The notes under the pieces were generated by a model. The model searched no databases. It was not told the origin of the DNA and worked only from the letters and a program-made list of their open reading frames with translations. From positions 1,116,001 through 1,180,000 of the forward strand of contig NC_135916.1 in NCBI RefSeq assembly GCF_964194155.1: a stretch of DNA of 64,000 bases, read 5' to 3'. Each line of letters begins with the position of its first letter. The stretch's first letter is position 1. This DNA is from Cetorhinus maximus (lineage: Eukaryota). Positions 1 through 33,930 of this stretch are shown in pieces. The position numbers were made by a program, and so were the translations under genes.

Positions 1-617
1 CCCACCCCCAAACCCCGCCCCTCCTGTATCTATAGGTCTCCGGGTTGTGTAAAAATGACTTTGCCACGATCTCTGTCAGTTCCTGGTAAATGTGTGCCGG
101 TGTTAGACTGCCCCTGTGAATTTCTGGTGTGTGAGCATTTATTTTATTATGTAGCAGTTCGTTGCTTGGAAGTGATTGGCGCTTTTCTTTTCTCTCCCCC
201 TCTATTCGTCAGTCTGTAGCATGAGAATGAGAGTTTTTATTCTGCATCTGCCAATGTCTGACATGTGAGTGTGGGTCTCTCTTGGCATTTGTCAATGTTT
301 GCAATGTGTGTGGTGTGTGAATGTGAATATTACATTGGGTTATTCAGTGTCAAATCGATCATCGTGTGTTTGAATCAACCTCTCAGTTTCTGACATTTAA
401 ATGTGAAAATACCTTAAAATTATCAGTTCTTTTGTATGTCAACTACATCCTGTACCTATAAATCTATTGTAAGCCAATCTAAGATTTACTCATTCTCTCA
501 GTAATGTTATGTGGTTATGTAATCTCTGTTATGACTGAATGGACTTTTCTCGCTATCTGTCAGTTTTCAATGTATGAAAAGCAAATACATGGCAGATGCT
601 TTAAAACATCGATTATG

Positions 618-1113
618 AACATAAGAACAGAAGAAATAGGAACAGGAGGCGGCCATTTGGCCACTCGAGCCTTCCTCATCATTCAATAAGATAATGGCTG
701 ATTTCTTTGTGTTTCAATCCCCACATTATCATCTACCCCCATAACCTTTGATTCTCTTGCCTATTAAGAATCTATCTGCCTCTGCCTTAAAAGATCTCAA
801 TGACCCTGCCTCCACTATCTTCTGAGGCAGAGATTTCCAAAGTCACACAGCCCTCTGAGAGAGAAAAAAATATCCTCACCCATGTCCAAAGAGGGCGATA
901 TCTAATTTAAAAACAGTGCCCCCTATTTGTGGAAACATCCTCTTGGTATCCACAATTTCAAGGCCACTCAGGATCTTGTATACATCAATCAATCACCCCT
1001 CACTCTTCTGAGACCCAGTGGAAACAAGCACAGTCTGTCCAACCTTTTCTTATAAGACATCACACTCATTACAGGTATCTATCTAGTAAAGCTCCTCTGA
1101 ACCACCTCCAATT
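618..1113 (-). mobile_element. CR1-type LINE 3' fragment
   Basis: Starts with the reverse-complement tail aacataagaacagaagaaataggaacaggagg, followed by degenerate CR1 ORF2 C-terminal sequence. Confidence 0.75.
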
Positions 1114-1912
1114 AGTGTGAAGTTATCCACATCAGTTGAAAAGGCAGCATGGGAGGGTACTATTTAAGTTGTGATGGATTGGGAAATGTTGAAGTAAAAA
1201 GGGAACTGGGTACCCATGCACACCAATCACTGAGAGCAAGCATGCAGGTGCAGGTAGCACTTAAGAAGGCAAATGATATGTTGGCCTTCATCGTGACATG
1301 GTTAATTGCAGGAGCAAGGATGTCTAACTGCAGCTATACAGGGCCTTGGCAAGACCACTCCTGGAGTATTGTGTGCAGTTCTGGTCTCCTTACCTAAGGG
1401 AGGATATATTTATCATAAGAGGAGTGCAGCGAAGATTCACCAGAGTGATCCCTGGGATGGCAGGATTGTCCTCTGAGGAGAGTTTGGGTCGAGTAGGCCT
1501 GTGTTCACTGGAGTTTAAAAGGATGAGAGGGTGTCTCAATGAAAGGTGTAACATTCTGACAGGGCTGGAATGATTGGGTGCAGGGATGATGTTTCCTCTG
1601 GCTGGGGGTCTAGAACAAGGGGTCACATTCTCAGGATACAGGGTAGATGGTTTAGAACTGAGATGAGGAGAAAGTTCTTCAATCAGAGGGTGGTAAACCT
1701 GTGCAATTCTCTATGATACAAGAGTGTGAAAGCCAAGTCACTGAATATATTTAAGAGCAAAATAGATAGATTTCAAGACTCCAAATGGACAAGGCTATGA
1801 TAACAGTGTGGTTGGATGGTGTTGAGATATAGGGTCAGCCATGATTAAATTGAATGGCAGAGCAGGCTCAACAGGGCAAATGACCTACTCCTGCTCCTAT
1901 TTTCTCTCTTTC
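1114..1912 (+). mobile_element. CR1-type LINE 3' fragment
   Basis: ORF 1346..1573 contains RPLLEYCVQFWSP, VQRRFTR and SLEFKRMRG. 3' end reads cctactcctgctcctatt. Confidence 0.88.
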
Positions 1913-2169
1913 CATGCCTGATATGTGATAATGGATTTCAGCTGTACCAGTTAGTTCATGTTTGGGATGTGTGTATTTTGTTCTGTATTCATATCTCTGT
2001 CTTGCAAGTGGTATATTTTGCTCTGTTCCTGATAATTTCTGATGAACTGATCGGTGGTTCTGTTTAGAACCTGTTGATTTCTGCTATGTGAATATGGGAT
2101 TTCCTTTGTCCTTGTCAGTTTATGGCATGAAGGTTTAACTCTGCAGCTAATGCAAATTCCAAATACCGT

Positions 2170-2372
2170 GAATATTGGAAATCTCAAGAAGAAAAATCAA
2201 AAATGCTGGAAATACTGAGCAGCTCTGGCAAGATTTGTGGAGACAGAAACAAAACTGCCATTTGTTTGAAAACTCCGAACTGATGAAGCGCCATTGAGCT
2301 GAAATGTTTTGTCTTGTTTTTTTCTCCACAGATGCTCCCAAACTCGCTGATTATTCCTCACATTTTCTTTGT
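2170..2372. mobile_element. Penelope-related inverted-repeat (pLTR-like) relic with hammerhead-like core
   Basis: Arm aaatgctggaaatactgagcag...gtggagacagaaac is mirrored by tttctccacagatgct...gctgattattcc. Core CTGATGA at 2280 and GAAA at 2301. Confidence 0.6.
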
Positions 2373-3894
2373 TTGTCCCCCATGTATGTTATTTCCAGCA
2401 AGTTCATCTGGCAGTTTCAAATATTTAATTCTGGCTTCCATTCTGACAATTTGCAATAATTGAATGGAGATTTTGCACTGTACCTCTCAGTTGTGTGTAT
2501 CTGTGTTTTCTGTACCTGTCAGTTTCGAGTATGTGAGGATTTATTTGAACTGCAAATTTTATATTGTGCCAAGTCGATGTGCATCCATTAGTTTCTCTGA
2601 ACTTACTGTGTTTTTAATTCTTTACCTGTCTGTGAATGGGGATTCTGCACTGTTCCCTGTTATTTACTCTTGTGTGACTGTATTTTTCCCAACACACTTA
2701 TAGTTCCAGCTGGCCTTTACTATGCATATGTCAGTCTCTGTAATGTGAGTGTAGCTATTACTCTGCACTTGCTTGTGCTTGATTTGTGAGTATATTTTTG
2801 AGTATTTTTGCCTGCATCTTAAATGGAATGTGTGTTTTGCTATTAACTCTCATTTGCTAAGATGTGTGTAAGTGGGTGGAACTAATCCTGTACCTGTACC
2901 TCTGTGATATATCAGCGTGATTGTATATCCCCACTAACATTTCAGGGTCACATATGTGAGCATGAAAATGATTTTGTGTCCCTTAGTTTACTGTAAATGA
3001 GTGAGGATTTAATCATTTAATGTCAGTCCTCTGTATGAGAATGTCGGGTTTATTCTGTCCTATTACTGGATAATTGTTATTTTTCTCTGTCTGCCTGTCA
3101 TATGTCTTGTCAGTTTTCCTCTGAACCGTCAGGCACCATTATTTGAGCCTGAGTCTGAGGTTGCATTTTCAATTTTATTTGTGATCCTGACCTTTACTTC
3201 CCTGTATCCCTCTGTTTTTGGTATGTGACGAGTAGTTTTATTCAGGACCTTACACATTTGAATTCAGGTTTATGTGTGTTTTTCCTGTAGCTATCAAAGT
3301 CTGTTATTTGAGTAAGAGTGTTCCTCCCTTTTTAACAGTTCAGTTCTGGAAGAATTGGTTTAATTCTGTATCTCTCTGTCTTGAATGTGCTGTTGATGAT
3401 ACATTATCACTCTCGGTCTCTGTTATGGGAATCCATATTTTTTGTGTTTCTGGCAGTCTCTGCTAGGGGAGAGGTGTTAATATGTTCCCTGTACTTGGTC
3501 AATATTAATTTGGTGAGATAAGGTTTAATATATTTATGTTTTTTGAATTGCATTTTCACTAATATTTCTCATTATCCAGTATAATTTATGCATTTTAATT
3601 TCATGCCAGTCATTTTCTAGTATTTGAGTGTGATTTCACTTGATATATTTCTGTCTCTTGCATGCGTGCCTTGGTGAAACTTATTTTCAAGCTGTCAGTG
3701 TCTGGTATGTTTTATATTTATATGTCAGCCATTTTTCAGTGAATGTGACTTTTATTTTGTGTGTTTTTAGTGCTTTTACTTTTATATATTTTTGCAAATT
3801 AGGTAACTGGAAGAGAATCTTAACCTGCAGTCAATCAGTTGTGTGGCACAATCTTGTTACATTTGACTAAGTGTCTAATGTTTACTGCACCTTC

Positions 3895-5512
3895 AACAGA
3901 GAAAATAACTGAGCAAACTATTGGGATTAAAGGGTGACAAGTCCCCAGGACCTGATGGCCTAAGTCCCAGTGTCTTAAAGGAAGTGGCAGTGTAGATAGT
4001 GAATGCATTGGCTATAATATTCCAAAATTCCCTGGATTCTGGAAAGGTTCCAGTGGTTAGGAAAGATGCTCACATAACGCCCTTATTCAAAAAGTGGGGG
4101 AGGGAGAAAGTAGGAATCTATAGACCAGTTAGTATAACATATGTCTTTGGGAAATTGTTGGAATCCATTATTAAGGAAGAAGTAATGGGGCATTTGGAAA
4201 GTCAAAATGCAATCCATCAGAGTCAGCATGGTTTTATGAAGAGTAAATCATGTTTGACTAATTTGCTAGATTTCTTTGAAGATGTGAGAAGCAAAGTGGG
4301 TAATGGGGATCCTGTAGATGTTGTATTATCTGGACTTCCAGAAGGCATTTGATAAGGTGCTGCACAAAAGATTAATACGCAAGGTAAGATCACACAAGGT
4401 TAGGGGTAATGTATTAGTTTGCATAGAGGATTGGCTAACCAACAGAAAGCAGAGATTCGGGAAAAATGTGTATTTTTCTGGATGGCAAGCTGTAACTAGT
4501 GGGGTGCCACAGGGTTTGGTCAATGGGCCCCATTTATTTACAATCTATATTATTGATTAGGATTCAGGGATAGAAGGTCCGATAGCTAAATTTGCAGATG
4601 ACACCAAAATAGGTGGGAAAGTAAGTTGCAATGAAGAAATAAGAAATTTTCAAATGGATATGGACAGGTTAGCTGAAAGGGCAAATGGAGTTTAACGTAG
4701 GTAAGTGTGAGATTATCCATTTTGGTCGGAAGAATAAAAAGGCGGTTTATATTTAATAGAGAGCAACTGCAGAATGCTTCAGTGCAGAGGGTTCTGGGTG
4801 ATCTCGTGCATGAATCGCTAAAAGCTAATATGCAGGTACAGCAGGTAATAAGGAAGGCAAATGGAATTTTGGCATTTATTGATAAAGGAAAAGTGTATAA
4901 AAATAGCCAAGTATTGTTGCAACTGTACAAGGCATTGGTGAGACCGCACCTGGAGTACTGTGCACAGTATTGGTCCCCATTCTTGAGGACCAATGTACTT
5001 GCACTGGAGGCGGTTCAGAGGAGGTTCATTAGATTGATTCCAGAGATGTGGGGCTTGTCTTATGAGGAGAGATTGAGCAGTTTAGGCCTATACTCGCTAG
5101 AGTTTAAAAGGATGAGAGGAGATCTAATTGAGGTATATAAGATTCCAAAAGGAATCGACAAAATAGACGAGGAGTGGTAGATTCCCCTTGTGAGACACTC
5201 TAGAACGAGAGGCTATACTTTTAGGCTAAGGGGTGGTAGATTTAAATCAGTGATGTGGAGCAATTACTTTTCTCAAAAGGTCATGAATCTGTGGAATTCA
5301 CTACCTCAGAGTGCAATGGATGCCGGGACACTGAATAAATTAAAGGAGGAGATAGACAGATTTTTAATTAGTCATGTGTTGAAAGGTCATGGGGAGAGGG
5401 CGGGAAATTGGAGTTGAGGTCGAAATGAGATCAGCCATGATTGTATTGAATGGAGGGGCAGGCTCGAGGGGCTGAATTGCCTACTCCTGCTCCTAGTTCT
5501 TATGTTCTTATG
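3895..5512 (+). mobile_element. 5'-truncated CR1 LINE, frameshifted reverse transcriptase
   Basis: Motifs YRPVS, QHGF, SCLTNLL, YLDFQKAFDKV, SGVPQG, KFADDTK (aaatttgcagatgacacc) and RPHLEY. Tail ttcttatgttcttatg. Confidence 0.95.
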
Positions 5513-5654
5513 CATTACCAATGTATATAGTCCTGCTAATTTTCAGCTGCGTATGTTTAAATTACTACCGTAATACCTGCTTCTTAACTACCGGGCCAGC
5601 ATTTAATTACTTAGATGCTGTCAATGTTCCATGTATATACTCACAGATGCTTCT

Positions 5655-5658
5655 TGTG

Positions 5659-5694
<36 letters not shown>

Positions 5695-5985
5695 AGTATT
5701 TGTGTCTGCAGGTGTGAATTTTTGTGAAAATCTGCATGACTGTGTGTGTCGGAGAGAAAGTGCAAGTTTGTTACTGTGTGCATTCATTTATGCATGTGTG
5801 TGTTTGTGCTTCTGTGTGTGTGAGGGCCTGTGTGTATGTTTGTGTGCATGTGTGTGATTTTTTGTGTGTGTGTGTTTGTGTATGTGTGCAACAGATGGTG
5901 TGCACATTTGTGTATATGTATGTTTGTCTGTGTGTGTTAGTGCAAGAGCCTGCGAGTGTGTGAATGTTTGTGTGGGAGTGTGCAG
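5655..5985. repeat. (TG)n-rich low-complexity tract
   Basis: Runs of tgtgtg visible directly. Copies at 43395-43745 and 35825-35970. Confidence 0.9.
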
Positions 5986-8242
5986 GGCTAATTTCCCATT
6001 TGTCTTTCTCTGGTACAGGATGCAGCTTTAGAATTAATTTTAATGAAATTTAAGTGTCTACCCTGTGACCATTACCTATGTTGGAATTAATTCCCTAAAT
6101 CTCAGTTATTATACTGTTTGTGTATCTCAAATTTCTCCTCTGTGTATATAACTCCATTATTATACATGTGAAGGTTTCTTCTGTACATAACATGTATCAC
6201 ATTCATGTTTCTGAAAACTATTTCTCCAATGCATTAATCTATTACTGTTTCCTAGCTCTGTTGCAGATTTTAAAATGAAACTTTGCATTTATCAAAGACC
6301 GGTGTTATTCTTTTATTTCATGTGAACTAAGGTATAGCATTCAGGCTGCAACTCGGCAAAAGTATTTGTGAATGATAATGAGACGCTTGAACTCACATGC
6401 TGTGTATGTCATATCTGATTGATTCAGTGTGTAATGATCTTACGTTATGAATCATAGTGAGAATATTAAACCGGCATGTGTTGTGTATCCATGACGTATT
6501 AATTAAAATTACACTTTCTCTTTATTTTAGATATAGTATGAGATCTTTGGAGGGGGGTTTAATGTGTTCCTCTGTGAGAACCTATGTACATTCTACAGAA
6601 TAATTTTGTACATTTCAGTCTGTTGCACTATCTGTAGCTAAGACTGCACTCTTCTGAAATGAATGAGGTGCCTTTCAATCTGATAGTATTTGTGGTTTTG
6701 GACTGTGATTGATGGACCTACCTTTCTGCGGTGCTTAGTGAGTGTGAATTGGGGAGAAATATTCTGTCTCCCCTGTTGTATTTGACTGTTGCGTTGAACA
6801 CGTCTATCTGAAACTTGAGATCAATGTGAATCTGATTCCTGCTCTCAGTGATGGTGGAACTGCTGTTCTGTCTGTGCTTTGAACAATAATGTACCTATGC
6901 CTACTCGAAGCATAGAGCTGCATGATTATTTAAGATGGGAAATCTATAGCTTGGCATTGGGGCTCAAAGAGAAATGGTGGCCCAATGTTATATAATTTTG
7001 AGATTGCAGGTAAATGTGTGTCTGTGCATGTGTGTATGTGTGTGTGTGTGTGTGCGTGTACATTTACCTGCCGGTCTTTAGTATGGGAGAAATTTATTTC
7101 TTCTCCACTATTTATATTCCACTATGTGAATGTGGGATCACACTGTATCTTTCACTTTTTAACATCTTACTATGGCGTTTATTTCTTTCCTGCCTGTGAA
7201 TGGGGATTCCAAAATGCACCTAGTTATTTGTTGCTGTGTGACTGTCTGATTTGTTTTATGAATGTTTGTAATTGATTCTGGGCTTTACTCTGGATCATTG
7301 ACTCTCTGTAATGCATTTGTGGCTATTATTCAGCACCTGTCAGTGCCTGATTTGTGAGTAAGCATCTTACTTTCACTGTTTCTGACATGTAATGCATATT
7401 TTTACTCATTGCCTCTTAGTTACAGGTATGTGGATTTGCATTTTATGTTCTGTATCTGCAATACTGTGAAATGTCAGTGTGATTCATTTTCCTGTTCTTT
7501 GTGTCAGGATCAGAAATGTGAGCATGGAAAAATTTGCTGAAACTCAGGTTATTTCAAATGAGTGAGACTTTACTCATTTGCTGTCAATCCCTGGTATGAG
7601 AAGGTATGGTTTAGTCTATGCCCATCATATTCTTGTGTGTGAGTATTGTCTTTTCCCATGGTCTGCATGTACCTTGTAGGTCATTGTCGATTTTGCTGTG
7701 AACTTGTCAGCCTGTATTACTTAAGTGTGATATTCACATTGCAGCTTTCAATTTAGTGTGTGAGCAAGGACCTCCCCCCACACTAACATCCCCCGCACTA
7801 CCCCTGACTGTATCTCTTGGTCTTTCATACAGGCTGTTATGTTTTAGTCAGCAACTTATGGGTTTTGATGCATTTTCAGGTCTGACATTACTGTAGCTAT
7901 CAACATCTGATTTCTCGGTACCCAACCTCTTCATATTTTGAAAAGTCTGTCATTGAAAAATTGATTATATTCAACACCTCTCTATCTCTGGTATGTGTCT
8001 GTGGTTTTATTATGTAAGTGTCTGCCCCTCTTACAGGAAGGTAACTTTCTTCTGTATCTGTCAGTCCCTCCTATGAGAGTGGTGTTATGTTATTCACTGT
8101 ACTTGTCAATATCTGCTTTGTGAGTTAAGTTTTAAACTTTCTTGTTTGTAGTGATCTGTCGATATAACTATTCTGAAAATATTGCTCTGGCATGTGATGT
8201 GTATGCGCGTCTGTATTAATGAATAAGTACTTTATCATTACC

Positions 8243-8833
8243 AGGAGCAGGTGATGGTGTAGTTGTATTGTCATTGGACTAATAATCTGGACAGCCAGGG
8301 TAGTGCTCTGGGTTCAAACCCTGACACTGCAGATTTTGGAATTTAAAATCAATAAAAATATGAATCGAATTAATGATCACCACGAAACCATTGTCGATTG
8401 TGGTAAAAACCCTTCTGGTTTACTAATATTCTTTAGAGAATGAAATCTGTCGTCCATGTACATGTGACTCTACACCCACCATTAAATGCCCTCTAAAATG
8501 GCCTAGCTAGCCACTCAATTGTAACAAATGGCAACAAAAAGATCATCGACAAAGGCAATCTCAGCCCTGTTGATCCTGAGGGACAAGGGCAGCAGATCGA
8601 TGAGAACACCACCACCTGGAAATTCCCCTCCAAGTGCCTCACCATTCTGAGATGGAACTATGCTGTCATTGCTGGGTCAAAAACCTGAAACTCCATTCCT
8701 AACAGCACTGTGGGTGTATCAACACCACAGGGACTGTAGCGGCTCAAGAAAGCAGCTTGTAAACCAACTTCTCAAGGGCAACTAAATGCTGTCCCAGCCA
8801 GCGAAGCAAACAACTCAAGGATGAATAAAATAA
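8243..8833 (+). mobile_element. Old tRNA-derived SINE with LINE-derived tail
   Basis: A-box-like tggtgtagttg and B-box ggttcaaacc. Tail ends ...aagggcaactaaatgctg...atgaataaaataaa. A paralogous copy occupies the same site at 23720-24340. Confidence 0.7.
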
Positions 8834-9241
8834 ATGTATGATACTGTGTGGGATCTTTGGTGTTGAGTCTATTGCATTGCTTTATGAATGCTGGGTACAT
8901 TCAAGGATTAATTCATTGAATTTCAATCAGCTTTATTTCCTGATATTTAAATTACAGCCAATGTTCCATTCTTGTGACATGCATGGAGTGAGCTTCAATT
9001 TGATATTGGTTGTGAGTTTGGACTGAAATTGGTGGACCTGCCATTCAGAGGTACTGAGTAGGAGTGTATTGTGATTATTCCAACCATCTCCCCAACCCCC
9101 GCCTCCCTTCTGAGCGTTTGACTATTGGATTGAGCACATGTATCTGGTATGAATTCCATTTGATTCTGACTATTTCTGTCCGTGGTGACGGTGGAAATGA
9201 TGTTCTGTCTGTATCTCTGCACTCTGTGAGTAATATCATAC

Positions 9242-13066: not shown

Positions 13067-13720
13067 ATGACCGATACTGCAGCCGCCGAAACGGCTCCTC
13101 CAGCCGCTCCCGCCGCCCAGGTCAAGACTCCCAAGAAGAAGAAGAAGGCGGCTCCACGGAGCAGTGCAGCCGGTCCCAAGCTGGGCGAGCAGATCCTCAA
13201 GGTTGTGGCGGATTGCAGCGATCGCAAGGGGATGTCGCTGCCCGCGATCAAGAAGGCGCTGCGCGGCAAAGGGCTGGATGTGGAGAAACTGGGCTCCCAG
13301 ATCAAGCAAAGCATCAAGAGGAATGTGAAGAATGGCTTCCTGGTTCAGGTCAAGGGCACGGGCGCCTCGGGCTCCTTCAAAGTCCCTAAGAACACAACCC
13401 CGGGGAAAGTGGGAAAGAAGGCGAAGGTAGCAGCTGGCAAGAAATCTCCAGTGAAGAAAGCGGCAGCCAAGAAGGTGACAGCAAAGAAAGCAACGGCCAA
13501 GAAAACAGTCAAGAAAGCAACGGCCAAGAAGACTCCAGTCAAGAAAGCAGCGGCCAAGAAATCCCCAGCGAAGAAAGCAGCGGCCAAGAAAACAGCCAAG
13601 AAGGCGGCAACTCCCAAAAAGCCGGTGAAGAAAGCAGCCCCCAAGAAAAAGTCTCCGGCCAAGAAGGTGACGGGCGTCAAAAAAGTGGCGAAAGGGAAGG
13701 CCAAGCCCAAAGGGAGATAA
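13067..13720 (+). CDS. H1: Histone H1 (217 aa), unit A
   Basis: Globular domain (RKGMSLPAIKKAL...LVQVKGTGASGSFK), K/A/P-rich tail with S/TPxK motifs, intronless, downstream stem-loop. Confidence 0.98.
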   Translation: MTDTAAAETAPPAAPAAQVKTPKKKKKAAPRSSAAGPKLGEQILKVVADCSDRKGMSLPAIKKALRGKGLDVEKLGSQIKQSIKRNVKNGFLVQVKGTGASGSFKVPKNTTPGKVGKKAKVAAGKKSPVKKAAAKKVTAKKATAKKTVKKATAKKTPVKKAAAKKSPAKKAAAKKTAKKAATPKKPVKKAAPKKKSPAKKVTGVKKVAKGKAKPKGR

Positions 13721-13777
13721 GCAAAGACAGGAAAGAAGGGAAAGATCCCGAGCAAATTGTAAACCTCTGAACCCAAA

Positions 13778-13818
13778 GGCTCTTTTCAGAGCCACCCACA
13801 TTTCACATGAAAGAGCTG
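13778..13818 (+). terminator. Histone 3' stem-loop plus HDE
   Basis: CCAAA-GGCTCTTTTCAGAGCC-ACCCA followed by gaaagagctg. Confidence 0.97.
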
Positions 13819-14488
13819 ATTCCCTGATCATTTGATCCCTGTCTCCGCGCTGGGAGCAGTTTTCAGATGGAAATGTTTCTTTATCCTTCCACTTAAATCC
13901 TATTTTCCCGCTCACTCACTGACACACTCTCCACCCGTCCCCTCCCGCACTGTGCAATAAGACACAGGGATATCCTTACAGCTCCCTATCCGGAATGTGT
14001 CCCAGTGCATTCAATGTTTATCTTTCCTTTATTCACATTTTCAAGGTGAGAGTCAGCAATGGAGTGAGCATCGCTCAAATGTCCCGTCTCACAACTAAGG
14101 CCCATACCTGTTGTTTCTCTAATTCTGTTGGAAGAGATGTTAGGGAATTTCTAAATCCCTTTTGGCAGCCTGGAGGGGAGGGTTCGGGGGATAGTCTAGA
14201 GTTGTGTTGGTATAGAATAGGAGAGGGATTGAAATAGATGCAAACATTTGACTCTTGATTGAAATGCAGTATCGAGGGGGGAATATTACTGAGAGGATTG
14301 GATTTAATACATTCGATTTTCAAAATAGCTGGTTTATGATGTTGAAGTATTTCAGTTACGTTTAAAGTTTTCTGTTCAGCTCTCTTCAGAATTTGATAAC
14401 TAAATGTACTTCGGGCTGGCAGGAGGAGGGACTGTCTGACCAGAGACATTGCCCTGACTGTCACTCAGGCTGTCTCGCCCCGCCTCTG

Positions 14489-14565
14489 ACACACACACAC
14501 ACACTCTCTCTCTCTCTCTCTCTCTCTCCCTTCCTCAGTCAGGTCGGGGCGGGCTGTATAAAAGC
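14489..14565 (+). promoter_or_regulatory. H4 promoter: (CA)n(CT)n, TCAGGTC element, GC box, TATA
   Basis: Microsatellite 14489-14528, then tcaggtcggggcggg, then TATAAAAG at 14557. Confidence 0.8.
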
Positions 14566-14610
14566 GGAACGTGAAGCAGCTCCCAACTCATTCAGCAGCG
14601 ATTTGACTGA

Positions 14611-14931
<321 letters not shown>

Positions 14932-14964
14932 ACAAATCGACCCGACTCTATAACAAAACCCAAA

Positions 14965-14980
14965 GGCTCTTCTAAGAGCC
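14965..14980 (+). terminator. Histone 3' stem-loop
   Basis: GGCTCTTCTAAGAGCC. Confidence 0.95.
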
Positions 14981-16030
14981 GCCCACAACCTCACATTGAG
15001 AGCAGTGACTTCAGAGCTGGAGAGGGAAAGCGAGATGTAGTTTTATATAAACACAGCCTTTCCATCTGCGCATTTTCCATTAACAATATGATCGTGAGTC
15101 ACACAAGTTTCATGGTTTAATTTAGTTCGGTTTTCAGGAATTCGTTTCCATGATTCCTGCCGAAACTCGATTCAAAGCTTGACTGAGGAACACGACAGCT
15201 CCCAAACTAACACCGAGTTCACAAGATAAAGGCCATCATTTATTACACTTTAATCAGGAGTAACTATTTTGAGACACATCATTCTCGCTTCTTCGCCCCA
15301 TTATCACCCTGTCTTTTTTCTTCGCCATCTGTTCCTGGGTCGTTGAGACATGACAGGGTGTGGGGGGTACCAGTATACCAGCTTTAAATGGATTAGCCTG
15401 TACCGATGCAGCATGTTGTCTGGTTCCAGGGAGCACTGAACAACTTTATTCTGGCCTGTATCAGGGCGATCAATGAAATAACCCGAATTTAAACGGGAAT
15501 GTCAGGCGAATATTGAGAGGCTGATAGAAAAATCTGACTACACTTAATCACCTCGATTCTGCATCTCAGGACGGACGGAAGGGTGAAGTGGATGATCTGC
15601 TTTTGGTGCATGGTTTGGACTGCGAAGATGCATTTACGCACATTGTGGAAGATAGATCAAATATGTAAACTTAGATATTAACTTGATTTACAGAAAGGGT
15701 GCGCAATCCGCACACCCACATCGCCTCCCCCAGCCATAAAACACTAGAAACAAGAGCCAAGCCATTCTCTCTATAACATCTATAGGGCTTTGACATGAAT
15801 AAACCGATAAGGTTGATCAGTTTTAAATGTGAGACCCAAAATTCCGCCCATCAATAGGAGTTTTATTCCAGCCTGCTGTAAACCGATCAGGGAATGAATG
15901 AGAATTTAATCCACGTTCAAAAGCAGGAAGTCGGAGCTGGGACCGAAATGGGGCTCGCAAACATTGAGACCTTGTGATATTTGTCCATTCAGATTGATTT
16001 TATCTGCCTTCAAACTAGGTTTATTTTAAT

Positions 16031-16208
16031 GTCAGTTACTCGTCCCTTTGAAATTGGCGGGCATTGTGAAATTGATGAACTGTCAGTTTCTGCTCCACCA
16101 ATCAGGGCCCAGGAATCCATGCAGCCCGCTGCTCCTTTCAAATTTCTCGGCGGGATTGCGCTGCATCCAATCAGGACAGGAGGGAGGTGACGGACATGTC
16201 TTAAATAG
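16031..16208 (+). promoter_or_regulatory. H3 promoter: MYB-like, CHR/E2F-like, two CCAAT boxes, TATA-like
   Basis: GTCAGTTA at 16031, TTTGAA at 16047 plus TTGGCGGG at 16054, CCAAT at 16098 and 16167, TTAAATA at 16201. Confidence 0.75.
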
Positions 16209-16676
<468 letters not shown>

Positions 16677-16984: not shown

Positions 16985-17592
16985 TGACTTATCTTATACC
17001 TTTGGGAGGAATGGCGGTGCGATCAATGCTTATTGGTCCATTTTATTACAGCTGGTAATGTTCCTTTATATTACCAATCAGATCTCTGCTTGATTCACCA
17101 ACGTGGAGACGTCACGTGGTTGACTTCCTAAAGTAATGGCGCGAAATCGTCAGTTACTAACCCATTATATATTTCAAATTTGGAAAGACCGCACTGAAAT
17201 CGTAATAGCTAATTCCCTTTTTAAATTATAACAATGCACGATTCACCCAACTCTTTCCATCTTTTGGACATCCTGCAGCTTACCTGTATCTGTTAGTTTC
17301 TGACTTTTGAGTGCGGAGTTTCATGTCTCTGACATGAAGCAGAAATTAAAGCGCCAATTTTGCAGGAACCGAGCCTTTGTTTTATTGAACATTGAAAAGC
17401 CCGACGAAACGTATGTAAAACGAATAATTAATTTGATACAGAATATTGCCTTAACATATAACACAGTCATTTCCATTTTTTAAAAGATTGGTCTCCCTTA
17501 TTGCACTATATCATATTTGGTCACAAGCCCCAAATTCGCTTTTAAGATCCGGAATCCATTCGGGTTTAATCTCGGACCTTTTTTCCAGTCCT
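16985..17592. promoter_or_regulatory. Orphan H2A(/H2B) promoter; H2A gene deleted
   Basis: Colinear with 33935-34569. Shared segments: cttatacc..ggaggaatgg.ggtgcg, ccaatcagatctctgc, aaatcgtcagttactaacc, ttacctgtatctgtta, ggaccttttt.cagtcct. Confidence 0.85.
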
Positions 17593-19356
17593 CTTTCTCT
17601 TTGTTCAACATATTCTGGCATGTGAATATGGGCTTTTGTTAGGACTCTCTGCACCTTGTATATCATTGTCCGTTCTTTGAATATGATGCTCACTTTTCAA
17701 CTTTTTAATGTAGCATGTGAACATGGATTTTAATCAGGACTTATCAGTTGTTGACTGTGTATAAGTGTCATATTCATTCTGTATGTATCAGCCTCTGGTG
17801 CTGTGTATGAATGTTGCTAACCTTTGTTATGTGCCTGTTGTGGTTCTGTATATGGCTGCAGAATTAATACTCTAAATGTAAATTTTGGACCCTGTGGGCA
17901 TTGAATTCGTTTTTTTCTTTCACCATATCTGTTAAGAATTGATGAGTTGTGTGTTTTATTAAGTGTTTTCAGTTACTTGAATACTGTGATAGAGTTGAAT
18001 TAATCCTGTACCCATCAGTGTGTTGCATTGTATGTGGATGAATACATTTTGCCCTCTGTGTAGTACTCTGTACCTGCTATGTATGGAAGAGTGCATTCAT
18101 TCTATCTGCAATATTTTCTGGTACTATCCGTGAGAGAGGGATTCCATCTGAATCTATCAATATCTGGAACTAAATGTGAGAATGAAGTTGATACGGATCC
18201 AGCCAAGCTGTTTGAGAACAATATTTTTTTGTGTGTCAGTCAATCTGGGCAATTTTATGTCATTGTGGGTTTTTGGCTCTGCGTCCTTAAGACTTTTCTA
18301 AAAAGATTTGTGTATGTCTGTGGCTCCTGCTCTCCATTTAATTCCCTGCTACTCTATATGTGGTTGAATAATGCATTGCTTCCAAATATATTGTTAGTTT
18401 CTTGCTCTATATTTATTAGTCCCTTAAATTGATGGAGTGTGTATTCACTCATTTAGCTGACAGTGAGTGTGATTCATTCAAATTATCCCTGCATCTGCTA
18501 TTGCATGGGAATGTGCCACTCTCTGCATGTCTTTCAGTGCCTAGTACAATGCATGATTTTGGGATTAAATTGTACATGACAGCGTCGGGTAAGGTATGTG
18601 TTTGTGGAGTTATTTCTATGATGTTATGGCCTCTATGATTCTATATGAATGAGATTATTTTGGTATCCTTCAGTTTCAGGTAGGCTAAGTGAATGTGGGG
18701 TTCATTATTTATCTTTCAGCCTTGGTGCTTTCCAAGAGTAAGTACTAAGGGTAAACAAGAAGTGTTCAGAGAACTTACATTATGATTCTTAGTGAGAATA
18801 TTGATATGGCACATGTTGTGTATTAAGGTCTGTATTCATTAAAATTATATTTTACCTTTATTTCAGATATTGTATGAGATCTTTGGTGTGTAATTTAATA
18901 TGTTCCTCTGCGTGGCGTCTGGGTACATTCTTAGCTTCACATATACAGCTGATTGAAATGCACAGATTTAATGCTAAGACTCCACTCTTGTGAAAGGAAT
19001 GGATTGTCTTTCAATCTGAAAAAGTTTTGGGCCAGGATTGATGGGCCTACCATTCTGTGACACTCATTGAGTTTGAATTGGGGATCATATTCTGTCTCCC
19101 CTGTCGTGTTTGAATGTTGTATTGAACATGTCTGCCCATTTTTGGTTTAACCTATAACATGGGTTCTACCAATGTTATAGCCATAAGTTATATTCTGTAG
19201 TTGCATAGGAGTTCAAAAATGGTACTCAATCTGTAGCTCTGTGAAAACAATTGTGAATAGCTACATCACCTTCAATCAACTATATAGCCTCAAATGTAAT
19301 TGATGCAGTTTGTAGTCAAGGAATTACCATTGTACCTTTATTCATGCAGAGCTTTT

Positions 19357-19840: not shown

Positions 19841-21959
19841 TTTCTTAGACTGCTATGAAATATATAGCCCTGACTAAATTCTGAGGTACTGCATTGCAAT
19901 TTATTAAGTAACGTACAGTGAGCTATCTTTTTTCTGTTCTGGCTAAGAAGATTTAAGTAATATCTGATGAGAATGAAAGAGAGAGTATGATATTTGTTGT
20001 GTTTTCTTTTAATCCTTTGATTGGTCTGCTGGATTATATGGTAGATGGAAATATAAACCATATTAAGACTCTCCGGAGCAGTTTGTCTTTTGGATTGAAC
20101 AGTTGTCTCTTCCCTTTGAAACAGTGTGGGAATGAATAATTATTTACTCGTGACAGTGGACATAATGACCTGGCAGCATCTCTGTTCTCTGTGAACGATG
20201 CTGCAAGTATCTTGTGTTGGAACAAGCTCACTTTTCATCTTGCTTATGTTATAACTTTTATAGTTGTCACTATTATGTATCCACCTTAGTTACTAGCCTC
20301 ATCTGTCGATGCATAGCATTGTTTGTGAGCTGAGATTTGTTCACTTCTTTTTAAATTGATCATTTCAACCATTTTATGTTTACCATTGTTTCCACTGCAT
20401 ATTAATTTATTAATTTGCAGGCCTGTACTATTATTTGAGTAATGTTTTCATTTTTAAAAATGATGCTGAATTTCACTTTCATAACATATGGGTGAAAAGA
20501 TTATTTTGTCATCTTATTGGAATTGGGATCCCCCTTCTTTGCTGCAATTAATTCTATGAATTGCATGTAAAGTCACTGGGATCCATTTAGGTATTTTAAC
20601 CTGTATCAAATATATTATTTTCGCTGGAATGGAAGTGTGAAGTTGGTCTGTAACTCTCAGGATTTGTTTGTAATTACACTGCACGTTAATTTTTGCTGTG
20701 AGTGACTGACTGTTTAGAAAATCCACCCATGTCATTTTTTTTTTTAGCATAAGATGTGTTTCATTCTCTATTTTACAGTTTTGTTTTATAAATGAATGTA
20801 AGTTCTGTATAATTGTGTGCATTTTCAGGTATGTGAGTATGATTAGTTTTTATTCTCCTGTTGTATTTATTAATTTCTAAGATGCCAAAATGTGATTTTG
20901 ACATGGTGCCTGTCAGTTACTGGTAAGTGAGTGCTAGTGTTACACTGTCCCTGTGAATATCTGTTGTATGAGCATTACTTTGTAGCACTTCATTACTTGC
21001 AAGTGACTTTTTTTTCTCCCTCTTTGTGGCATGTGAATGTGAATATGTGTGTTGCTCTTACTTGGCATTTGACAGTTTTGTTACGTGTCTGGTAAGTTAA
21101 TGTGAATTTACACTCTTTCTTTTTCAGTTTTTAACATGTAAACATGTATTTGAGACTGATTCCCAATCTCTGGCATGAAAATTAGGAAATACCATAAATG
21201 TTTCAGTTTTTTATTCTGGATGTGTCACAAATATTCTTTAACCATTCTTCTCTTGTAAAGAAATTCTAAGATTTACTCAGATTCTCTTAGTAATGTTATG
21301 AAATTGTGTGATTATTGAACTGTGTGTAAGCCTGTCTGTGTGTGTGCACCTGTCTGTGTGTGTGTGGGTGTGTGTGTGGGTGTGTGTGCCTGTTTATGCT
21401 CCTTTTGTCTATCTTATGTGTGAATGGACTTTTCTCTCTATCTGTCATTTTTCAATATGTACATGTGCACATTGACTGGCACTCACAAGTATCTGGCATG
21501 CTGGTAAAGGTACATTTTGTACATATCCAGTTTTAGCTTTTCCCTTAGGATAGCCTTGGCTTTAAGTTGTAATATTCAGCTTCTGGTATGGAAGTGTGCA
21601 TGTTACCCGTACCTGACCCTTTCAGATATGAGAGTGTGGTATTCAAATTGTCTGCTCGTTTCTAGCCTCTGATGTGAGCATTTTTACTTTTGTTAAAGTT
21701 AGCATTTTTAATGAGACTCTGCATTTACTGTGAATTTCAGTATCTGATCTACGATTGTGGATTTTAATCAGTCCTGATTTGTTTCTGTTTGGGATTGATA
21801 TCTCTGTTATAGGAGTGATATATTCCATTCTGTTATTGTCACTTTCTAATGAGGTGAACGATCCTTTTTGATCAGAATCTGTTTAATTTTGGTGCCTGAA
21901 TATGGGATTTCCTTTGCAATTGTCAGATTTTGACATGAAGGAATGTTTATAATCTGTAG

Positions 21960-22190
21960 CAAAAGCAAAAACAAAATATCTACAGGTGGATGCTTGAAAT
22001 CTCAAGAAAAAGGAAACACAATTGCTGGAAATACTGAGCAGGCCAGACAACATCTGTGGAGTCAGGAGCTGAATTACCCTCCACCTGAAAATTCTGACAT
22101 CAGAAAAGGTCATTGAACTGTCATGTTCACTCTCAGCCTTTCTGAACAGGTGCTGGCTTCCTTGCTGAGTATTTCCTGCATTGTTGGTGT
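21960..22190. mobile_element. Penelope-related inverted-repeat relic (paralog of 2170-2372)
   Basis: gctggaaatactgagcagg is mirrored by cttgctgagtatttcctgca. Confidence 0.55.
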
Positions 22191-23719
22191 TTCTTCCTAC
22201 CCTTGTACGTGTTAATTTCCAACAAGTGAATATGGCATCACTGTGCACCTGCCAATGTCTGACAAATATGTTTCACTTCAATTCTGACAGGGTTTCAACG
22301 TAGAATTTGGTGTGCGTGTGTGCACATGTGCATGTTTCTAGAATGGTAGAATTTTTTTTTTTCTGCACTTTTCATAGAATGCTATGCGAATGTCAGTTCC
22401 CCCTGTATCTGTCACTTTTTAACATGTTACTATGAGTCTTATTGTTTACCTGTCTGTGAATGGGGATTTTAAAATGCACCAAGTTATTTGCTGCTGTGTG
22501 ACTGATTTCTTTTATACATGTTTGGAATTAATTATGGGTTTTTAAAAAATATATATACTTTATTTATAAAACATCTGAAAGAAAATTTCTAAATCGCCAT
22601 CACAAGAAGTGAAAACAGATTCAACTTTTAGACATGGATCACGAGATGCTTCAATACATTCAATGAATATTACAATCATTTCAATATGGTCATTACAGAC
22701 AGTCAGACAGCGCAATGATATTGGAGTTATCAACATACATCATGTTGCACACTTGAGGTGTTACAATACTATTACTATTCAATGCAGATATTTTTTGTGA
22801 GCAGTACAGCTTTACTCTGGGTATTTAACTCTCTGTAATGCACTTGTGGCTATTACTCTGCAGCTGCCAGTGACTGACATGTGAGGATGCATTTTGCATT
22901 CACTGTTGCTGACATGTAATGCATATTTTACTACTTAACTCTCAGTTACTGGTATATAGATGTGCTGATTTTATTCTGTATCAGTAATTCTGTGATATGT
23001 CAGTTTGATTCATTTTCCTGTTGTTTGGGTCAGGGTCAGAAGTATGATCATGGAAAAATAAATATGTTGAAACTCTTAGGCTATTTTAAATGAATGAGAA
23101 TTTAATTATTTGCTTTCAGTCCCCGGCATGAGAATGTGCCCTATGCTTATCATATTCTTGTAGGTGAGTATTGTCTTTCCTCCAGGTCTTTATGCACCTT
23201 GTAGGTCATTGTCGGTTTTGCCGTGAACATGTCAGCCTGTATTACTTGAGTGTGATGTTCACATTGCAGCTTTCAATTTAGTGTGTGAGCATAGACCATT
23301 CGTTCCCTCCTCCCAACCCCTCAACCCAAACCTACAGATTTTGATGCATGTTCATGTGTGATTTTAGCGTAGCTATCAACTTCTGCTTTCTGGGTACCCA
23401 TTTTCTTCTTATTTTGAAAATTCTGATGTGGAAAAAAGGATTTTATTCTGCACCTCTCTATCGCTGGTATGTGTCTGTGGTTTTACAATGTAAGCATCTG
23501 CCCCTGTCATGGGAATTCAGGTTTCTTCTGTATCTGTCAGTCTCTCCTATGAGAGCGGTGAAATGTTATTTGCTGTACTTGTCAATATCTGCTTTGTCAG
23601 TTAAGGTTTAACCTATCTTGTTTGTAGAGATCTGTTGATATAACTATTAGTGAGAATATTGCTCTGGCACGTGATGTGTATGTGTGTCTGTCTTAATGAA
23701 TATGTACTTTATCATTATC

Positions 23720-28698: not shown

Positions 28699-29355
28699 AT
28701 GACCGATACTGCAGCCGCCGAAACGGCTCCTCCAGCCGCTCCCGCCGCCCAGGTCAAGACTCCCAAGAAGAAGAAGAAGGCGGCTCCCCGGAGCAGTGCA
28801 GCCGGTCCCAAGCTGGGCGAGCAGATCCTCAAGGTTGTGGCGGATTGCAGCGATCGCAAGGGGATGTCGCTGCCCGCGATCAAGAAGGCGCTGCGCGGCA
28901 AAGGGCTGGATGTGGAGAAACTCGGCTCCCAGATCAAGCAAAGCATCAAGAGGAATGTGAAGAATGGCTTCCTGGTTCAGGTCAAGGGCACTGGCGCCTC
29001 GGGCTCCTTCAAAGTCCCTAAGAACCCAACCCCGGGGAAAGTGGGAAAGAAGGCGAAGGTAGCAGCTGGCAAGAAATCTCCAGTGAAGAAAGCGGCAGCC
29101 AAGAAGGTGACAGCAAAGAATGCAGCGGCCAAGAAAACTCCAGTCAAGAAAGCACCGGCCAAGAAAACTCCAGTCAAGAAAGCAGCGGCCAAGAAATCCC
29201 CAGCGAAGAAAGCAGCGGCCAAGAAAACAGCCAAGAAGGCGGCAACTCCAAAAAAGCCGGTGAAGAAAGCAGCCCCCAAGAAAAAGTCTCCGGCCAAGAA
29301 GGTGTCGGGCGTCAAAAAAGTGGCGATAGCGAGGGCCAAGCCCAAAGGGAGATAA
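28699..29355 (+). CDS. H1: Histone H1 (218 aa), unit B
   Basis: Same globular domain as 13067, with variant tail repeats. Confidence 0.98.
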   Translation: MTDTAAAETAPPAAPAAQVKTPKKKKKAAPRSSAAGPKLGEQILKVVADCSDRKGMSLPAIKKALRGKGLDVEKLGSQIKQSIKRNVKNGFLVQVKGTGASGSFKVPKNPTPGKVGKKAKVAAGKKSPVKKAAAKKVTAKNAAAKKTPVKKAPAKKTPVKKAAAKKSPAKKAAAKKTAKKAATPKKPVKKAAPKKKSPAKKVSGVKKVAIARAKPKGR

Positions 29356-29412
29356 GCAAAGACAGGAAAGAAGGGAAAGATCCCGAGCAAATTGTAAACC
29401 TCTAAACCCTAA

Positions 29413-29428
29413 GGCTCTTTTCAGAGCC
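29413..29428 (+). terminator. Histone 3' stem-loop (variant flanks)
   Basis: CCTAA-GGCTCTTTTCAGAGCC-GCGCA. Confidence 0.93.
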
Positions 29429-30238
29429 GCGCACATTTCACATGAAAGAGCTGATCCCCTAATCATTTAATCCCTGTCTCGGAGCTGGGAGCAGATTTCA
29501 GATGGAAATGTTTCTTTATCCTTCCACTTAAATCCCATTTTCCCGCTCAGTCACTGACACACTCTCCACCCGTCCCCTCCCGCACTGTGCAATAAGACAC
29601 AGGGATATCCTTACAGCTCCCTATCCGGGATGTGTCCCAGTGCATTCAAAGTTTATCTTTTCTTTATTCACATTTGCAGGGTGAGAGTCTGCAATGGAGT
29701 GAGCATCGCTCAAATGTCCCGTCTCACAACTAAGGCCCATACCTGTTGTTTCTCTAATTCTGTTGGAAGAGATGTTAGGGAATTTCTCAATCCCTTTATT
29801 TCATTGTGGAGGGGAGGGGTCGGGGGATAGTCTAGAGTTGTGTTGGTATAGAATAGGAGAGGGATTGAAATAGACGTAAACATTTGACGCTTAATAGAAT
29901 TGCAGTATCGAGGGGGGGATATTACTGAGAGGATTGGATTTAATAAATTCGATTTTCGAGCTAGCTGGTTAATGATGTTGAAGTATTTCAGTTACGTTTA
30001 AAGCTCTTTGTTCAATTCTCTTCAGAATTTGATAAATAAATGTATTTCGGTCAGGCAGGAGGAAGAGCTGGTTTAACAAAGAGGTTGTTCTGTCTGTCAC
30101 TCAGTCTCTCCCGCCCCGCCTCTCACACACACACTCTCTCTCTCTCTCTCACTCTCCCTTCCTCAGTCAGGTCGGGGCGGGCTGTATAAAAGCGGAACCT
30201 GAAGCCGCTCCCCACTCATTCAGCAGCGATTTGACTGA

Positions 30239-30559
<321 letters not shown>

Positions 30560-31135
30560 ACAAATCGACCCGACCCTATAACAAAACCCAAAGGCTCTTC
30601 TAAGAGCCGCCCACAACCTCACATTGAGAGCAGTGACCTTGGAGAGGGAAAGCGATATGTAGTTCATAAAAACATCTTTTTCATCTGCGCATTCTCTATT
30701 CGCTTTACTATAGTGAGTTACACAAGGTTTCATGGTTTAATTTCGTTCGGTTTTCAGGAATTCGCTTCCTTTCAATCTCCAGAAACTCGATTCCCAGCCT
30801 GGCTGAGGAACACGACAGATTCCAAACTAACACCGAGTTCACAAGATAAAGGCCATCATTTATTACACTTTGATCAGGAGTAACTATTTTGAGACACATC
30901 ATTCTCGCTTCTTCGCACTATTTTCAACCCTGTCTTTTTTATCTTCGCTTTCTCTTCCTGAGTCTTTGAAACATGACAGGACCTGGGAGGTATCTGTAGA
31001 TGAGCTTTATATGGATCAGCCTGTATCGATGCAGCATGTTGACTGGTTCCAGGAAGCACGTTGTTTAAGAGCTTTATTCAGGCCTGTTTCAGAGCGATCA
31101 ATACAATAATGCGAATTTAAAAGGGAATGTAAGGC

Positions 31136-32162
31136 AAATCTCAGCAGGTCTGGCAGCAGCGGCGGAGATGAAAAGAGTTGACATTTCGAGTCCTCATGAC
31201 CCTTCAACAGAACTGAGTATAGTTAGGAGAGGGGTGAAATATAAGCTGGTTTAAGGTGGGGGGGCGGGGGGAGAGATAAGTTGAGGGTGGGGGGGCGTTG
31301 TAGGGACAAGCAAGCAGTGATAGGAGCAGATAATCGAAAGATGTCACAGACAACAGTAATAAAGAGTTGTTGAAGGTGACGATATCTAAACGAATGTGCT
31401 AATTACGAATGGATGGCAGGACACTCAAGGTACAGCTCTAGTGGGGGTGGGGTGGAAAGACTAACAGGGCATAAAAGGTATAAATTTAAAAATAATGGAA
31501 ATAGGTGAGAAAAGAAAAATCTATATAAATTATTGGAAAAATCAAAAGGAATGGGGAAGAAATGGAACGGGGGTGGGGATGGAGGAGAGAGTTCAAGTTC
31601 TAAAGTTGTTGAATTCAATATTCAGTTCGGAAGGCTGTAAAGTGCCTAGTCGGAAGATGAGGTGCTGTTCCTCCAGTTTGCGTTGGGCTTCACTGGAACA
31701 ATGCAGCAAGCCAAGGACAGACATGTGGGCAAGAGAGCAGGGTGGAGTGTTAAAATGGCAAGCGACAGGGAGGTTTGGGTCTTTCTTGCGGACAGACCGC
31801 AGGTGTTCTGCAAAGCGGTCGCCCAGTTTGCGTTTGGTCTCTTCAATGTAGAGGATACCGCATTGGGAGCAACGAATGCAGTAGACAAAGTTAGGGGAAA
31901 AGCAAGTGAAATGCTGCTTCACTTGAAAGGAGTGTTTGGGCCCTTGGACGGTGAGGAGAGAGGAAGTGAAGGGGCAGGTGTTGCATCTTTTGCGTGAGCA
32001 AGGGGACGTGCCGTAGGTGGGGGTTGAGGAGGAGGGGTTGATGGATGAGTGGACCAGGGTGTCCCGGAGGGAACGATCCCTACGGAATGCCGCCGGGGTG
32101 GGGTGAATGGAAGATGTGTTTGGTGGTGGCATCATGCTGGATTTGGCGGAAATGGCGGAGGA
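31136..32162 (-). mobile_element. Penelope-like retroelement 3' part (GIY-YIG endonuclease plus pLTR)
   Basis: ORF 31593..32135 has CxxxxCNTC, VYCIRCSQCGILYIEET, RFAEH and VACHFN. Terminal ctcagcaggtctggcagc...tttcgagtcctcatgacccttc. Confidence 0.92.
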
Positions 32163-32507
32163 ATGAGGCCTCCGGCCATCAATCGGTCAGGGGATGAAAG
32201 AATTTAATCTGCGTTCAAAAGCAGGAAGTCGGAGCTGTTTCCGAAATGGGTCTCGCAAACATTGAGACCTTGTGATATTTCGACTTTGAGATTTATTTTA
32301 TCTGCCTTCAAACTTGCTTTATTTCAATGTCAGTTACTCGTCCCTCTGAAATTGGCGGGCATTTTGAAATTGATGAACTGTCAGTTTCTGCCCCACCAAT
32401 CAGGGCCCAGAAATCAATGCAGCCCCGCTGCTCTTTTCAAATTTCTGGGCGGGATTGCGCTGCATCCAATCAGGACAGGAGGGAGGTGACGGACATGTCT
32501 TAAATAG

Positions 32508-32975
<468 letters not shown>

Positions 32976-33440
32976 ACTGACCCTTCCCGACACTAGACTT
33001 ACCCCGAGAACCACAAAGGCTCTTTTCAGAGCCACCAAGTCGGTCAGAGAAAGAGCTGCGATCAATTGTTAAAAACTCCAGCACCTAAAACCCACAAACC
33101 TACAATTTATTTTCTTTCCTTTTGATTATCCTGTTCCCTCCCTCTGCTGCATTTGGGGTTATGGGGTGATTCCGTTTATATTTGTTTGTAATTTTACATC
33201 ATTTTATTGGAAATGGGATGAGTTAATTATTCAAAGAACATTTCCCTGAACATTGGCAATTGGTCATATATAGATGCAGCACAGACTTTTCATGTCTGGA
33301 AAAGGCAACAGCGCCAGCGTCTCGTTGTAACCAGCGCTTTCACAGATCGCATGAGAAATATAATGTCATTCCGAATCGATAGGGATGTTATCGCGGATCC
33401 GGATAGACAACAGGTCGCCCCTTTCACTGATTAAGTGAGT

Positions 33441-33456
33441 GGCTCTGAAAAGAGCC
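33441..33456 (-). terminator. Histone 3' stem-loop of H2A
   Basis: Reverse complement reads CCAAA-GGCTCTTTTCAGAGCC-ACTCA. Confidence 0.96.

Positions 33457-33486: not shown

Positions 33487-33930
<444 letters not shown>

Follow-up and report, generated by a model that had tools for sequence, protein, structure and literature searches.

A decayed 41-bp tandem repeat family in the histone gene spacers of the shark Cetorhinus maximus

Introduction

Tandem repeats between vertebrate histone genes have a described counterpart in the newt Notophthalmus, where Stephenson, Erba and Gall reportedly found in 1981 that satellite 1, with a unit of 222 bp, forms long tracts between the histone clusters. 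Short repeats are likewise part of the Xenopus ribosomal DNA (rDNA) intergenic spacer, whose 60/81-bp enhancer repeats are homogeneous and promoter-related. Transcripts of the newt satellite on lampbrush chromosomes are interpreted, in the accessible sections of two papers, as read-through from upstream genes (PMC5615363; PMC12046345). Here we analyze 64,000 bp of the genome of Cetorhinus maximus (3.99 Gb), positions 1116001-1180000 of contig C39 (NC_135916.1), hereafter called the window; other C-numbers denote contigs of the same genome. The spacers between the histone gene cassettes of the window contain decayed, head-to-tail copies of a 41-bp unit.

The locus resembles newt satellite 1 in having a non-coding tandem repeat as the spacer between vertebrate histone cassettes, but the shark unit is 41 bp long and about one third decayed, whereas that of the newt is said to be homogeneous; no homology between the two is claimed. 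It has in common with the rDNA spacer subrepeats that oriented repeats of short unit length occupy a constant position in the spacer of a multigene cassette arranged in tandem, but the shark units are decayed, interrupted by transposons and without constraint at the level of single bases. The satellite library or life-cycle model, as far as the accessible text of PMC5615363 sets it out, holds that low-copy remnants escape homogenization and that variants are re-amplified, comparable to the young 43-bp and 46-bp arrays described below; the old shark arrays differ from it in that they lack unit-level concerted evolution, homogenization acting on whole multi-kilobase cassettes. Elasmobranch small chromosomes are tandem-rich and carry histone and transfer RNA (tRNA) co-clusters, according to the accessible part of a preprint (bioRxiv 10.1101/2025.06.08.657570), and thus offer the same genomic setting as that of the array; that part of the preprint describes no specific spacer unit, and the 41-bp family is one that Tandem Repeats Finder misses in the window.

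Results

A 41-bp period in the histone spacers

An earlier note on this DNA, made from the letters alone, had claimed a very old 40-bp tandem periodicity in the T/G-rich histone spacers. Such a period is real, at 40-41 bp, by autocorrelation, by the spacing of profile matches and by a hidden Markov model (HMM). Autocorrelation was tested against 100 dinucleotide shuffles, with the 95th percentile of the best shuffled lag as the threshold (3.4 for positions 1-9240). In 1-9240 after masking, lag 40 was the highest peak, with z 4.3, and lag 41 reached z 3.2. The array cores, which were hand-picked after hits had been seen, gave z values at lags 40/41 of 4.3/5.0 for A and 4.1/3.4 for B, and no 40/41 peak was found in control sequences from gene regions and a long interspersed nuclear element (LINE). 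Profiles started from six different single units of the window all converged on one 41-mer consensus, with 135 matches in the window on the + strand, 9 on the - strand and 10 on the reversed sequence; 39 of the 134 gaps between profile matches were 40 or 41 and 9 more were 80-82, as for head-to-tail copies. A cyclic HMM run over 1-37755 placed 6,420 match bases on the + strand and none on the - strand or the reversed sequence, and the phase of the unit is continuous along the HMM rows.

The unit is 41 bp long, spacings of 40 resulting from the loss of 1 bp, and units of 45-46 bp are also present. The HMM consensus agrees with the one drawn up by eye in the earlier note at 37 of 38 specified bases and has one extra base. 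Scored against that earlier consensus, 160 places on the + strand and 4 on the - strand of the whole window reach at least 22 of 38. Six of the eight positions that had been offered as examples fit it at 23-32 of 38 bases (236, 32; 2716, 30; 2757, 24; 36721, 32; 36761, 23; 36801, 28), and two were misplaced: 20909 and 20950 score only 15 and 9 because they were quoted 11 bases out of register, the true units lying 41 apart at 20898 (27) and 20939 (25). The array is thus a minisatellite-type tandem family, with a unit of 10-100 bp repeated head-to-tail and one shared consensus. The spacer cannot be said to be built from such units throughout, as had been proposed, since they account for only about a third of 1-9240: the recognizable array takes up ~2,980 of the first 9,300 bases, and the remainder consists of LINE and short interspersed nuclear element (SINE) inserts, a TG microsatellite and other spacer. 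In agreement with the expectation that the repeat is too diverged for default tandem-repeat finders, Tandem Repeats Finder (minimum score 30) reported none of the array in the window. The units were described as always lying on the + strand, which is true for this window; elsewhere the strand flips together with the cassette.

Independent decay from a single consensus

Decay was measured on 670 near-complete units, with distances taken over 26,511 sites. One consensus was recovered in all nine stretches analyzed, from three contigs, with differences only at near-tied columns, and the identity of the units to it was 0.655-0.682 in all nine. Adjacent units are 0.49-0.55 alike, all pairs 0.50-0.54, and the cross-locus medians are 0.50-0.53, where independent decay predicts 0.514. 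In the old arrays, units within an array are therefore no more alike than units of different arrays, and unit-level concerted evolution is absent. The Jukes-Cantor (JC) distance from unit to consensus is 0.44, and simulation places the true value near 0.45-0.5. Indels were in register in 9 of 47 rows, most of the 47 rows coming from the young 43-bp array; among ~9 other events one, of 167 bp, was exactly in register. The 167-bp difference, between two C32 copies (L051 vs L057, ~1500), spans matching positions of two decayed units and looks like recombination between them.

The array predates the duplication of the A and B spacers, as had been suggested: their paralogous array blocks align in register at a JC distance of 0.156-0.265 (0.16-0.27 when rounded), compared with 0.44 from unit to consensus. 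Non-array blocks of the same duplication give 0.152-0.255; three array and three non-array pairs fall at 0.16-0.18, and one pair of each at ~0.26. Counted per lineage, this puts the age of the array at about five times that of the A/B split. Older duplications of internal blocks lie at 0.31-0.45, and the 38-kb copy within the window at 0.01. Contigs of another organism (organism C) cover both B-type spacer stretches, array and non-array alike, with ~6-10% difference.

The array is also older than the transposable elements that interrupt it, a further point on which the earlier note proved right. The SINE-like insert near 2140-2340 is missing from the C32 paralogue, where the array continues, and self-comparison of the window shows that the B block lacks any counterpart of the elements at 613-1916 and 3898-5516. 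The latter element has matches in up to 22 of 40 unrelated loci. Only 19 of 6,616 array bases overlap with genome-wide repeats.

Constraint on the unit

Consensus bases are not protected between paralogues when array and non-array sites are compared. Differences were found at 0.044 of consensus-matching sites (167/3784), 0.058 of non-matching array sites (102/1762) and 0.038 of non-array sites (36/957); among eight C32 copies the corresponding values were 0.128, 0.140 and 0.139. In a symmetric test over 9,999 sites, differences without the consensus base made up 0.176 of all differences, and neutral simulation gave 0.211+-0.016. This deviation does not indicate selection, because selection for the consensus would raise the share. 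No column of the unit is conserved above 0.84, which rules out a reading of the unit as splice-site-like (pyrimidine tract, AG, GT), the columns concerned being 0.45-0.79 conserved. Rfam matches were limited to histone stem-loops within the window and, across 14 loci, to tRNAs or one stem-loop, with no structured RNA for the unit.

Occurrence in the genome and position relative to H2B

Statements on the genome as a whole rest on three mismatch patterns plus sampled stretches. A first pattern (31-32 bases, at most 3 mismatches, whole genome) gave 30 matches, 14 on C32, 15 on C39 and 1 on C408. An independent second one (31-32 bases, at most 3 mismatches) gave 108 matches; C32 accounted for 62 of the 100 listed, C36, C39 and small contigs together for 37, and C1-C31 for a single one, which is a TG/TC simple repeat. 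Reversed-pattern controls over the whole genome gave no match, and the HMM called nothing in 20 of 20 random 10-kb genome samples. By the matches listed in these two scans, the old form of the array is found only on contigs with histone clusters and is not a dispersed genome-wide element. C32 is the second contig with a large histone cluster and has arrays of the same consensus across it; the arrays lie between the histone cassettes.

The longest arrays extend over ~25 kb (C39:772-797 kb), where lag 41 lies 12 robust standard deviations (SD) above the median lag and relaxed settings of Tandem Repeats Finder return a 24-copy 41-bp array. In three long arrays period 41 stands 12.0, 10.7 and 6.3 robust SD above the median lag, a measure distinct from the shuffle test. 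The 772-797 kb array has no histone match within 60 kb and is ~92% identical to an array with an H2B remnant. Exact-match genome patterns for the near-full consensus gave 0 matches, and a pattern of two adjacent near-consensus units gave 5, on C65, none of them called by the HMM; with neither pattern was a young array of plain 41-bp units obtained. Three copies of a short anchor set 40-41 apart matched 859 times, and the 20 loci examined show no profile matches at a spacing of 40-41. A DNA search with window positions 2400-3500 returned 49 matches as best candidates, all on C39, and metagenome contigs gave 0 matches to a consensus pattern.

Mapping of 19 stretches showed the array ~0.3-2.3 kb to the 5' side, and on the opposite strand, of 13 out of 15 H2B genes or remnants, a count of non-independent cases because the stretches were mostly picked for the repeat and are related by duplication. 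One of the other two H2B lies at a stretch edge and cannot be judged, and one, on C22, has no array. In the window, 34300-34568 and 17477-17583 match the DNA immediately 3' of an H2B gene in a cassette on C32; the array follows each of them directly, with no H2B in between. This arrangement suggests that H2B was likely lost from the window cassettes by deletion.

Several further observations concern the histone clusters themselves. Small unplaced contigs (C1639, C1897, C3151 and 21 more listed) carry a near-identical unit; two that were mapped contain H3, broken H2A/H2B and the array, and are likely a collapsed tandem histone array. At the right cluster edge (C39:1895001-1935000) the orientation of cassette and array switches several times, which indicates inversions. 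A pattern for the H4 coding sequence gave 356 exact matches, and 85 of the first 100 listed are on C1-C27. These are nearly all scattered singles, many with identical 32 bases, and suggest many recent H4 retrocopies.

Young 43-bp and 46-bp offshoots

Only in two young offshoots of the family are units within an array more alike than units of different arrays. In the 777-kb array of C39 one derived unit has been re-amplified to 21 copies of 43 bp with 87% matches. A 46-bp form, consisting of the 41-mer plus five extra bases, makes up arrays on C11, C16, C21, C36 and small contigs, with a lag-46 identity of 0.57-0.89; a scan with a 46-bp pattern gave 166 matches (100 listed) and its reversed control 0. 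The 45-46-bp spacings of the window, near 17773 and at 35018-35156, fit this form. Of 15 mapped 46-bp stretches, 8 have a tRNA gene, 3 of these also with decayed histone genes, and 7 have neither a tRNA nor a histone gene within ~10 kb. The 46-bp form thus also lies away from intact histone genes, and such loci do not strictly delimit the family: the restriction that had been considered for it applies to the old 41-bp form, and the young 46-bp subfamily occurs elsewhere as well. A dispersed block made up of tRNA-Gly, a 46-bp array, decayed H3/H2A and tRNA-Asp recurs, complete or incomplete, on small contigs, on C36 and close to the start of C11.

Organization of the window

The features of the window are listed in Table 1. 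Besides cassettes A and B there is a third histone cassette (50823-54573), which is a copy of the first. A histone gene search of the window found neither H2A nor H2B in cassette A and no H2B in cassette B; H2B was found in none of the three, and H2A in one only. Both genes are present in cassettes at the cluster edge and on C32. One H1 of the window groups in a 90% cluster, the named members listed being Cetorhinus maximus and Carcharodon carcharias. Self-comparison of the window revealed a 38-kb duplication at 99% and an older paralogy of the A, B and C spacers at 65-91%; array blocks inside the young duplicate are located at 37779-38284, 39647-41517, 44765-45895, 55181-55696 and 58651-61591.

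Table 1. Coordinates of histone cassettes, array blocks and interrupting elements (positions in the 64,000-bp window).
Feature	Position	Strand	Details
Decayed 41-bp array block 1	24..577	+	~13 units; HMM segments
Genome-wide interspersed repeat, inserted in array	613..1916		LINE-like pieces; matches in up to 15/40 unrelated loci
Decayed 41-bp array block 2	1898..2148	+	in register with C32 paralogue at ~71%
SINE-like insertion	2149..2405		SINE label putative; array phase resumes beyond; also present in the B copy (21945-22190)
Decayed 41-bp array block 3	2406..3760	+	contains 2716/2757 of the earlier note
Non-long-terminal-repeat (non-LTR) retrotransposon 3' fragment	3898..5516	+	reverse transcriptase remnant; RVT_1 E=3.5e-11 at 4318-4557
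Decayed 41-bp array block 4	7021..8138	+	segments 7021-7764 and 7963-8138
Genome-wide repeat	8253-8840		in the non-array part of the first 9,300 bases
Histone cassette A	13067..16676	+	H1 13067-13720, H4 14620-14931, H3 16266-16676
Array start past cassette A	17284..18039	+	45-46-bp units; HMM
Decayed array, spacer B	20755..23612	+	20755-21937, 22204-22504, 22811-23612; two inserts; units 20898/20939
Histone cassette B	28699..33879		H1 28699-29355, H4 30248-30559, H3 32565-32975 (+), H2A 33487-33879 (-)
Decayed array, spacer C	34934..37704	+	34934-35598 (46-bp units), 36704-36884 (36721/36761/36801 of the earlier note), 37414-37704
Young duplicate block	37756..61591	+	97-99% copies of 1-16288, 16267-21336, 21387-25847; self-comparison

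The third H3 copy (54020-54573) has an insert of ~120-140 bp near its start that is missing from its 99% twin at 16266, and the flank of this insert appears duplicated. A 226-bp inverted repeat (98%; 10405-10628 and 12207-12432) brackets ~1.6 kb upstream of H1 and looks like the terminal inverted repeats of a DNA transposon. Positions 31133-32162, in cassette B only, contain an interspersed repeat with a weak GIY-YIG match (E=0.036), which is possibly Penelope-like.

Discussion

The arrays share one period and one consensus, decay in a star-like manner, are paralogous in register, were entered later by LINEs and SINEs and have young related arrays. We consider it probable that they descend from a single amplification of one 41-bp unit immediately 5' of H2B in an ancestral histone cassette of the shark lineage, after which homogenization stopped and the units decayed neutrally while the cassettes duplicated. 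The amplification would have proceeded by unequal crossing-over, slippage or rolling circle, which are now indistinguishable. Once unit-level homogenization had ceased, the units would have decayed independently and without selection on their sequence, and whole cassettes would then have been duplicated, inverted and rearranged repeatedly, carrying the array along. Retroelements would have inserted later, parts including the H2B of the window cassettes would have been deleted, and single units would now and then have seeded new arrays.

Several results weigh against this history. The peak at 40-41 had been expected in two further masked spacers besides 1-9240, and both stayed below the shuffle threshold (17600-24725, z 2.7/1.8 at lags 40/41; 34925-36880, z 2.1/-0.2), only the core of the former exceeding it. 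In pooled pairs the divergence of the array (584/9,999 = 0.058) is lower than that of the background (213/3,093 = 0.069), an estimate biased low by the retention of only those array sites at which the two copies had the same phase. Polarized changes at non-consensus sites led to the consensus base in 59/97 and 32/63 cases, an excess that may reflect mis-polarization and could be due to gene conversion between units or to selection. Site-choice bias together with wrong polarity can explain both the lower array divergence and the excess toward the consensus. The constant position and orientation beside H2B fit a role as well as they fit inheritance, and in a sample picked for the repeat and derived from few ancestral cassette types 13 of 15 does not amount to 13 independent events. 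The age implied for the array, discussed below, is a further difficulty.

Some of these points would also be expected of a degenerate but working chromatin or transcription element upstream of H2B (a boundary, a spacer enhancer or a read-through sink), made up of many weak sites without a key base. Its side and strand relative to H2B are fixed in the 13 of 15 cases across cassette types whose H1 is only 51-75% identical to that of the window, the array diverges slightly less than the background in the one pooled test, and changes toward the consensus are in excess. We nevertheless regard such an element as unlikely, given that consensus bases are unprotected, that LINEs and SINEs break the arrays freely, that the recognizable array length varies from <1 kb to ~20 kb, that arrays remain where H2B is deleted or a pseudogene, and that two histone loci on C22 have no array.

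The absolute age of the array depends on the rate applied. Whale shark and zebra shark differ by a synonymous divergence (dS) of 0.061-0.111 after ~50 million years (My), according to the accessible part of PMC13100897. At this rate the array would be 396-817 My old. Living cartilaginous fishes are ~420 My old; the upper implied age exceeds this and would need a faster local rate or a non-star history, for which reason we claim only an age of hundreds of millions of years, and this if shark coding rates apply. The implausibly high upper end is what an array much younger than it appears would produce, having been amplified from units that were already variable, or residing in a histone cluster whose mutation rate is far above that of coding DNA. 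In line with this, turnover continues, as the young 43-bp and 46-bp arrays show, and small chromosomes and chromosome ends evolve faster in sharks (PMC13100897). A much younger array is nonetheless improbable in our view, as decay is uniform in all old arrays, neighboring units are not extra alike, and even the A/B split, ~five times younger than the array, predates the split from organism C.

Capture of the unit from some gene or mobile element, be it an exon coding for C2H2 zinc fingers or a repeat internal to a transposon, with the arrays as remnants of that element, is highly improbable. The unit has a visible likeness to zinc-finger coding DNA of this genome, and the 46-bp form occurs in dispersed blocks with tRNA genes, but the likeness is not significant (score 39, shuffles 32.3+-4.7, p=0.10), the period is 41 instead of 84 or 42, the HMM made no call in 11 of 12 zinc-finger loci (the twelfth being a short TG-rich stretch), and almost none of the array lies in genome-wide repeats. 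On the p value and the period, a C2H2 zinc-finger origin was rejected. The HMM does mis-call TG/TC simple repeats at a few loci (C22:87.7 Mb; periods 34-52 on C11 and C36), as would fit a spurious period arising from low-complexity, T/G-rich sequence. Such an artefact can be dismissed: dinucleotide shuffles, minus-strand and reversed controls, the absence of matches to reversed patterns in the genome, the seed-independent convergence and the 40-41 and 80-82 spacings all refute it.

Returning to a single ancient amplification followed by neutral decay, we tentatively raise the possibility, itself doubtful, that the array is a relic 300-450 My old, predating the shark-ray split, which has remained legible through the slow change of shark DNA and marks the upstream side of H2B in an ancestral chondrichthyan histone/tRNA cluster. 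If true, few decayed tandem arrays that can still be read in a vertebrate would be older, and the array would provide an internal clock for the duplications of cassettes and for those pieces of the histone cluster that moved to the ends of other chromosomes.

The 41-bp family is real, apparently undescribed and most likely neutral, and histone-spacer tandem repeats as a kind are already known. No description of it was found in the searchable literature; Repbase, Dfam and preprint supplements lay outside this search, and an entry may exist there. Of greater consequence would be a role upstream of H2B, for which there is no support at base level. If neutral, the array is a useful fossil and not a mechanism, illustrating the seeding of new arrays by frozen satellite units and the fact that such DNA escapes repeat annotation. 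Its main interest would be its age and its value as a clock: several hundred independently decayed units from one ancestor may record the long-term mutation spectrum and supply a relative clock for shark histone clusters, running from the array (0.44 per lineage) through the internal blocks (0.31-0.45 pairwise), the A/B duplication (~0.17) and organism C (~0.06-0.10) to the 38-kb copy (0.01).

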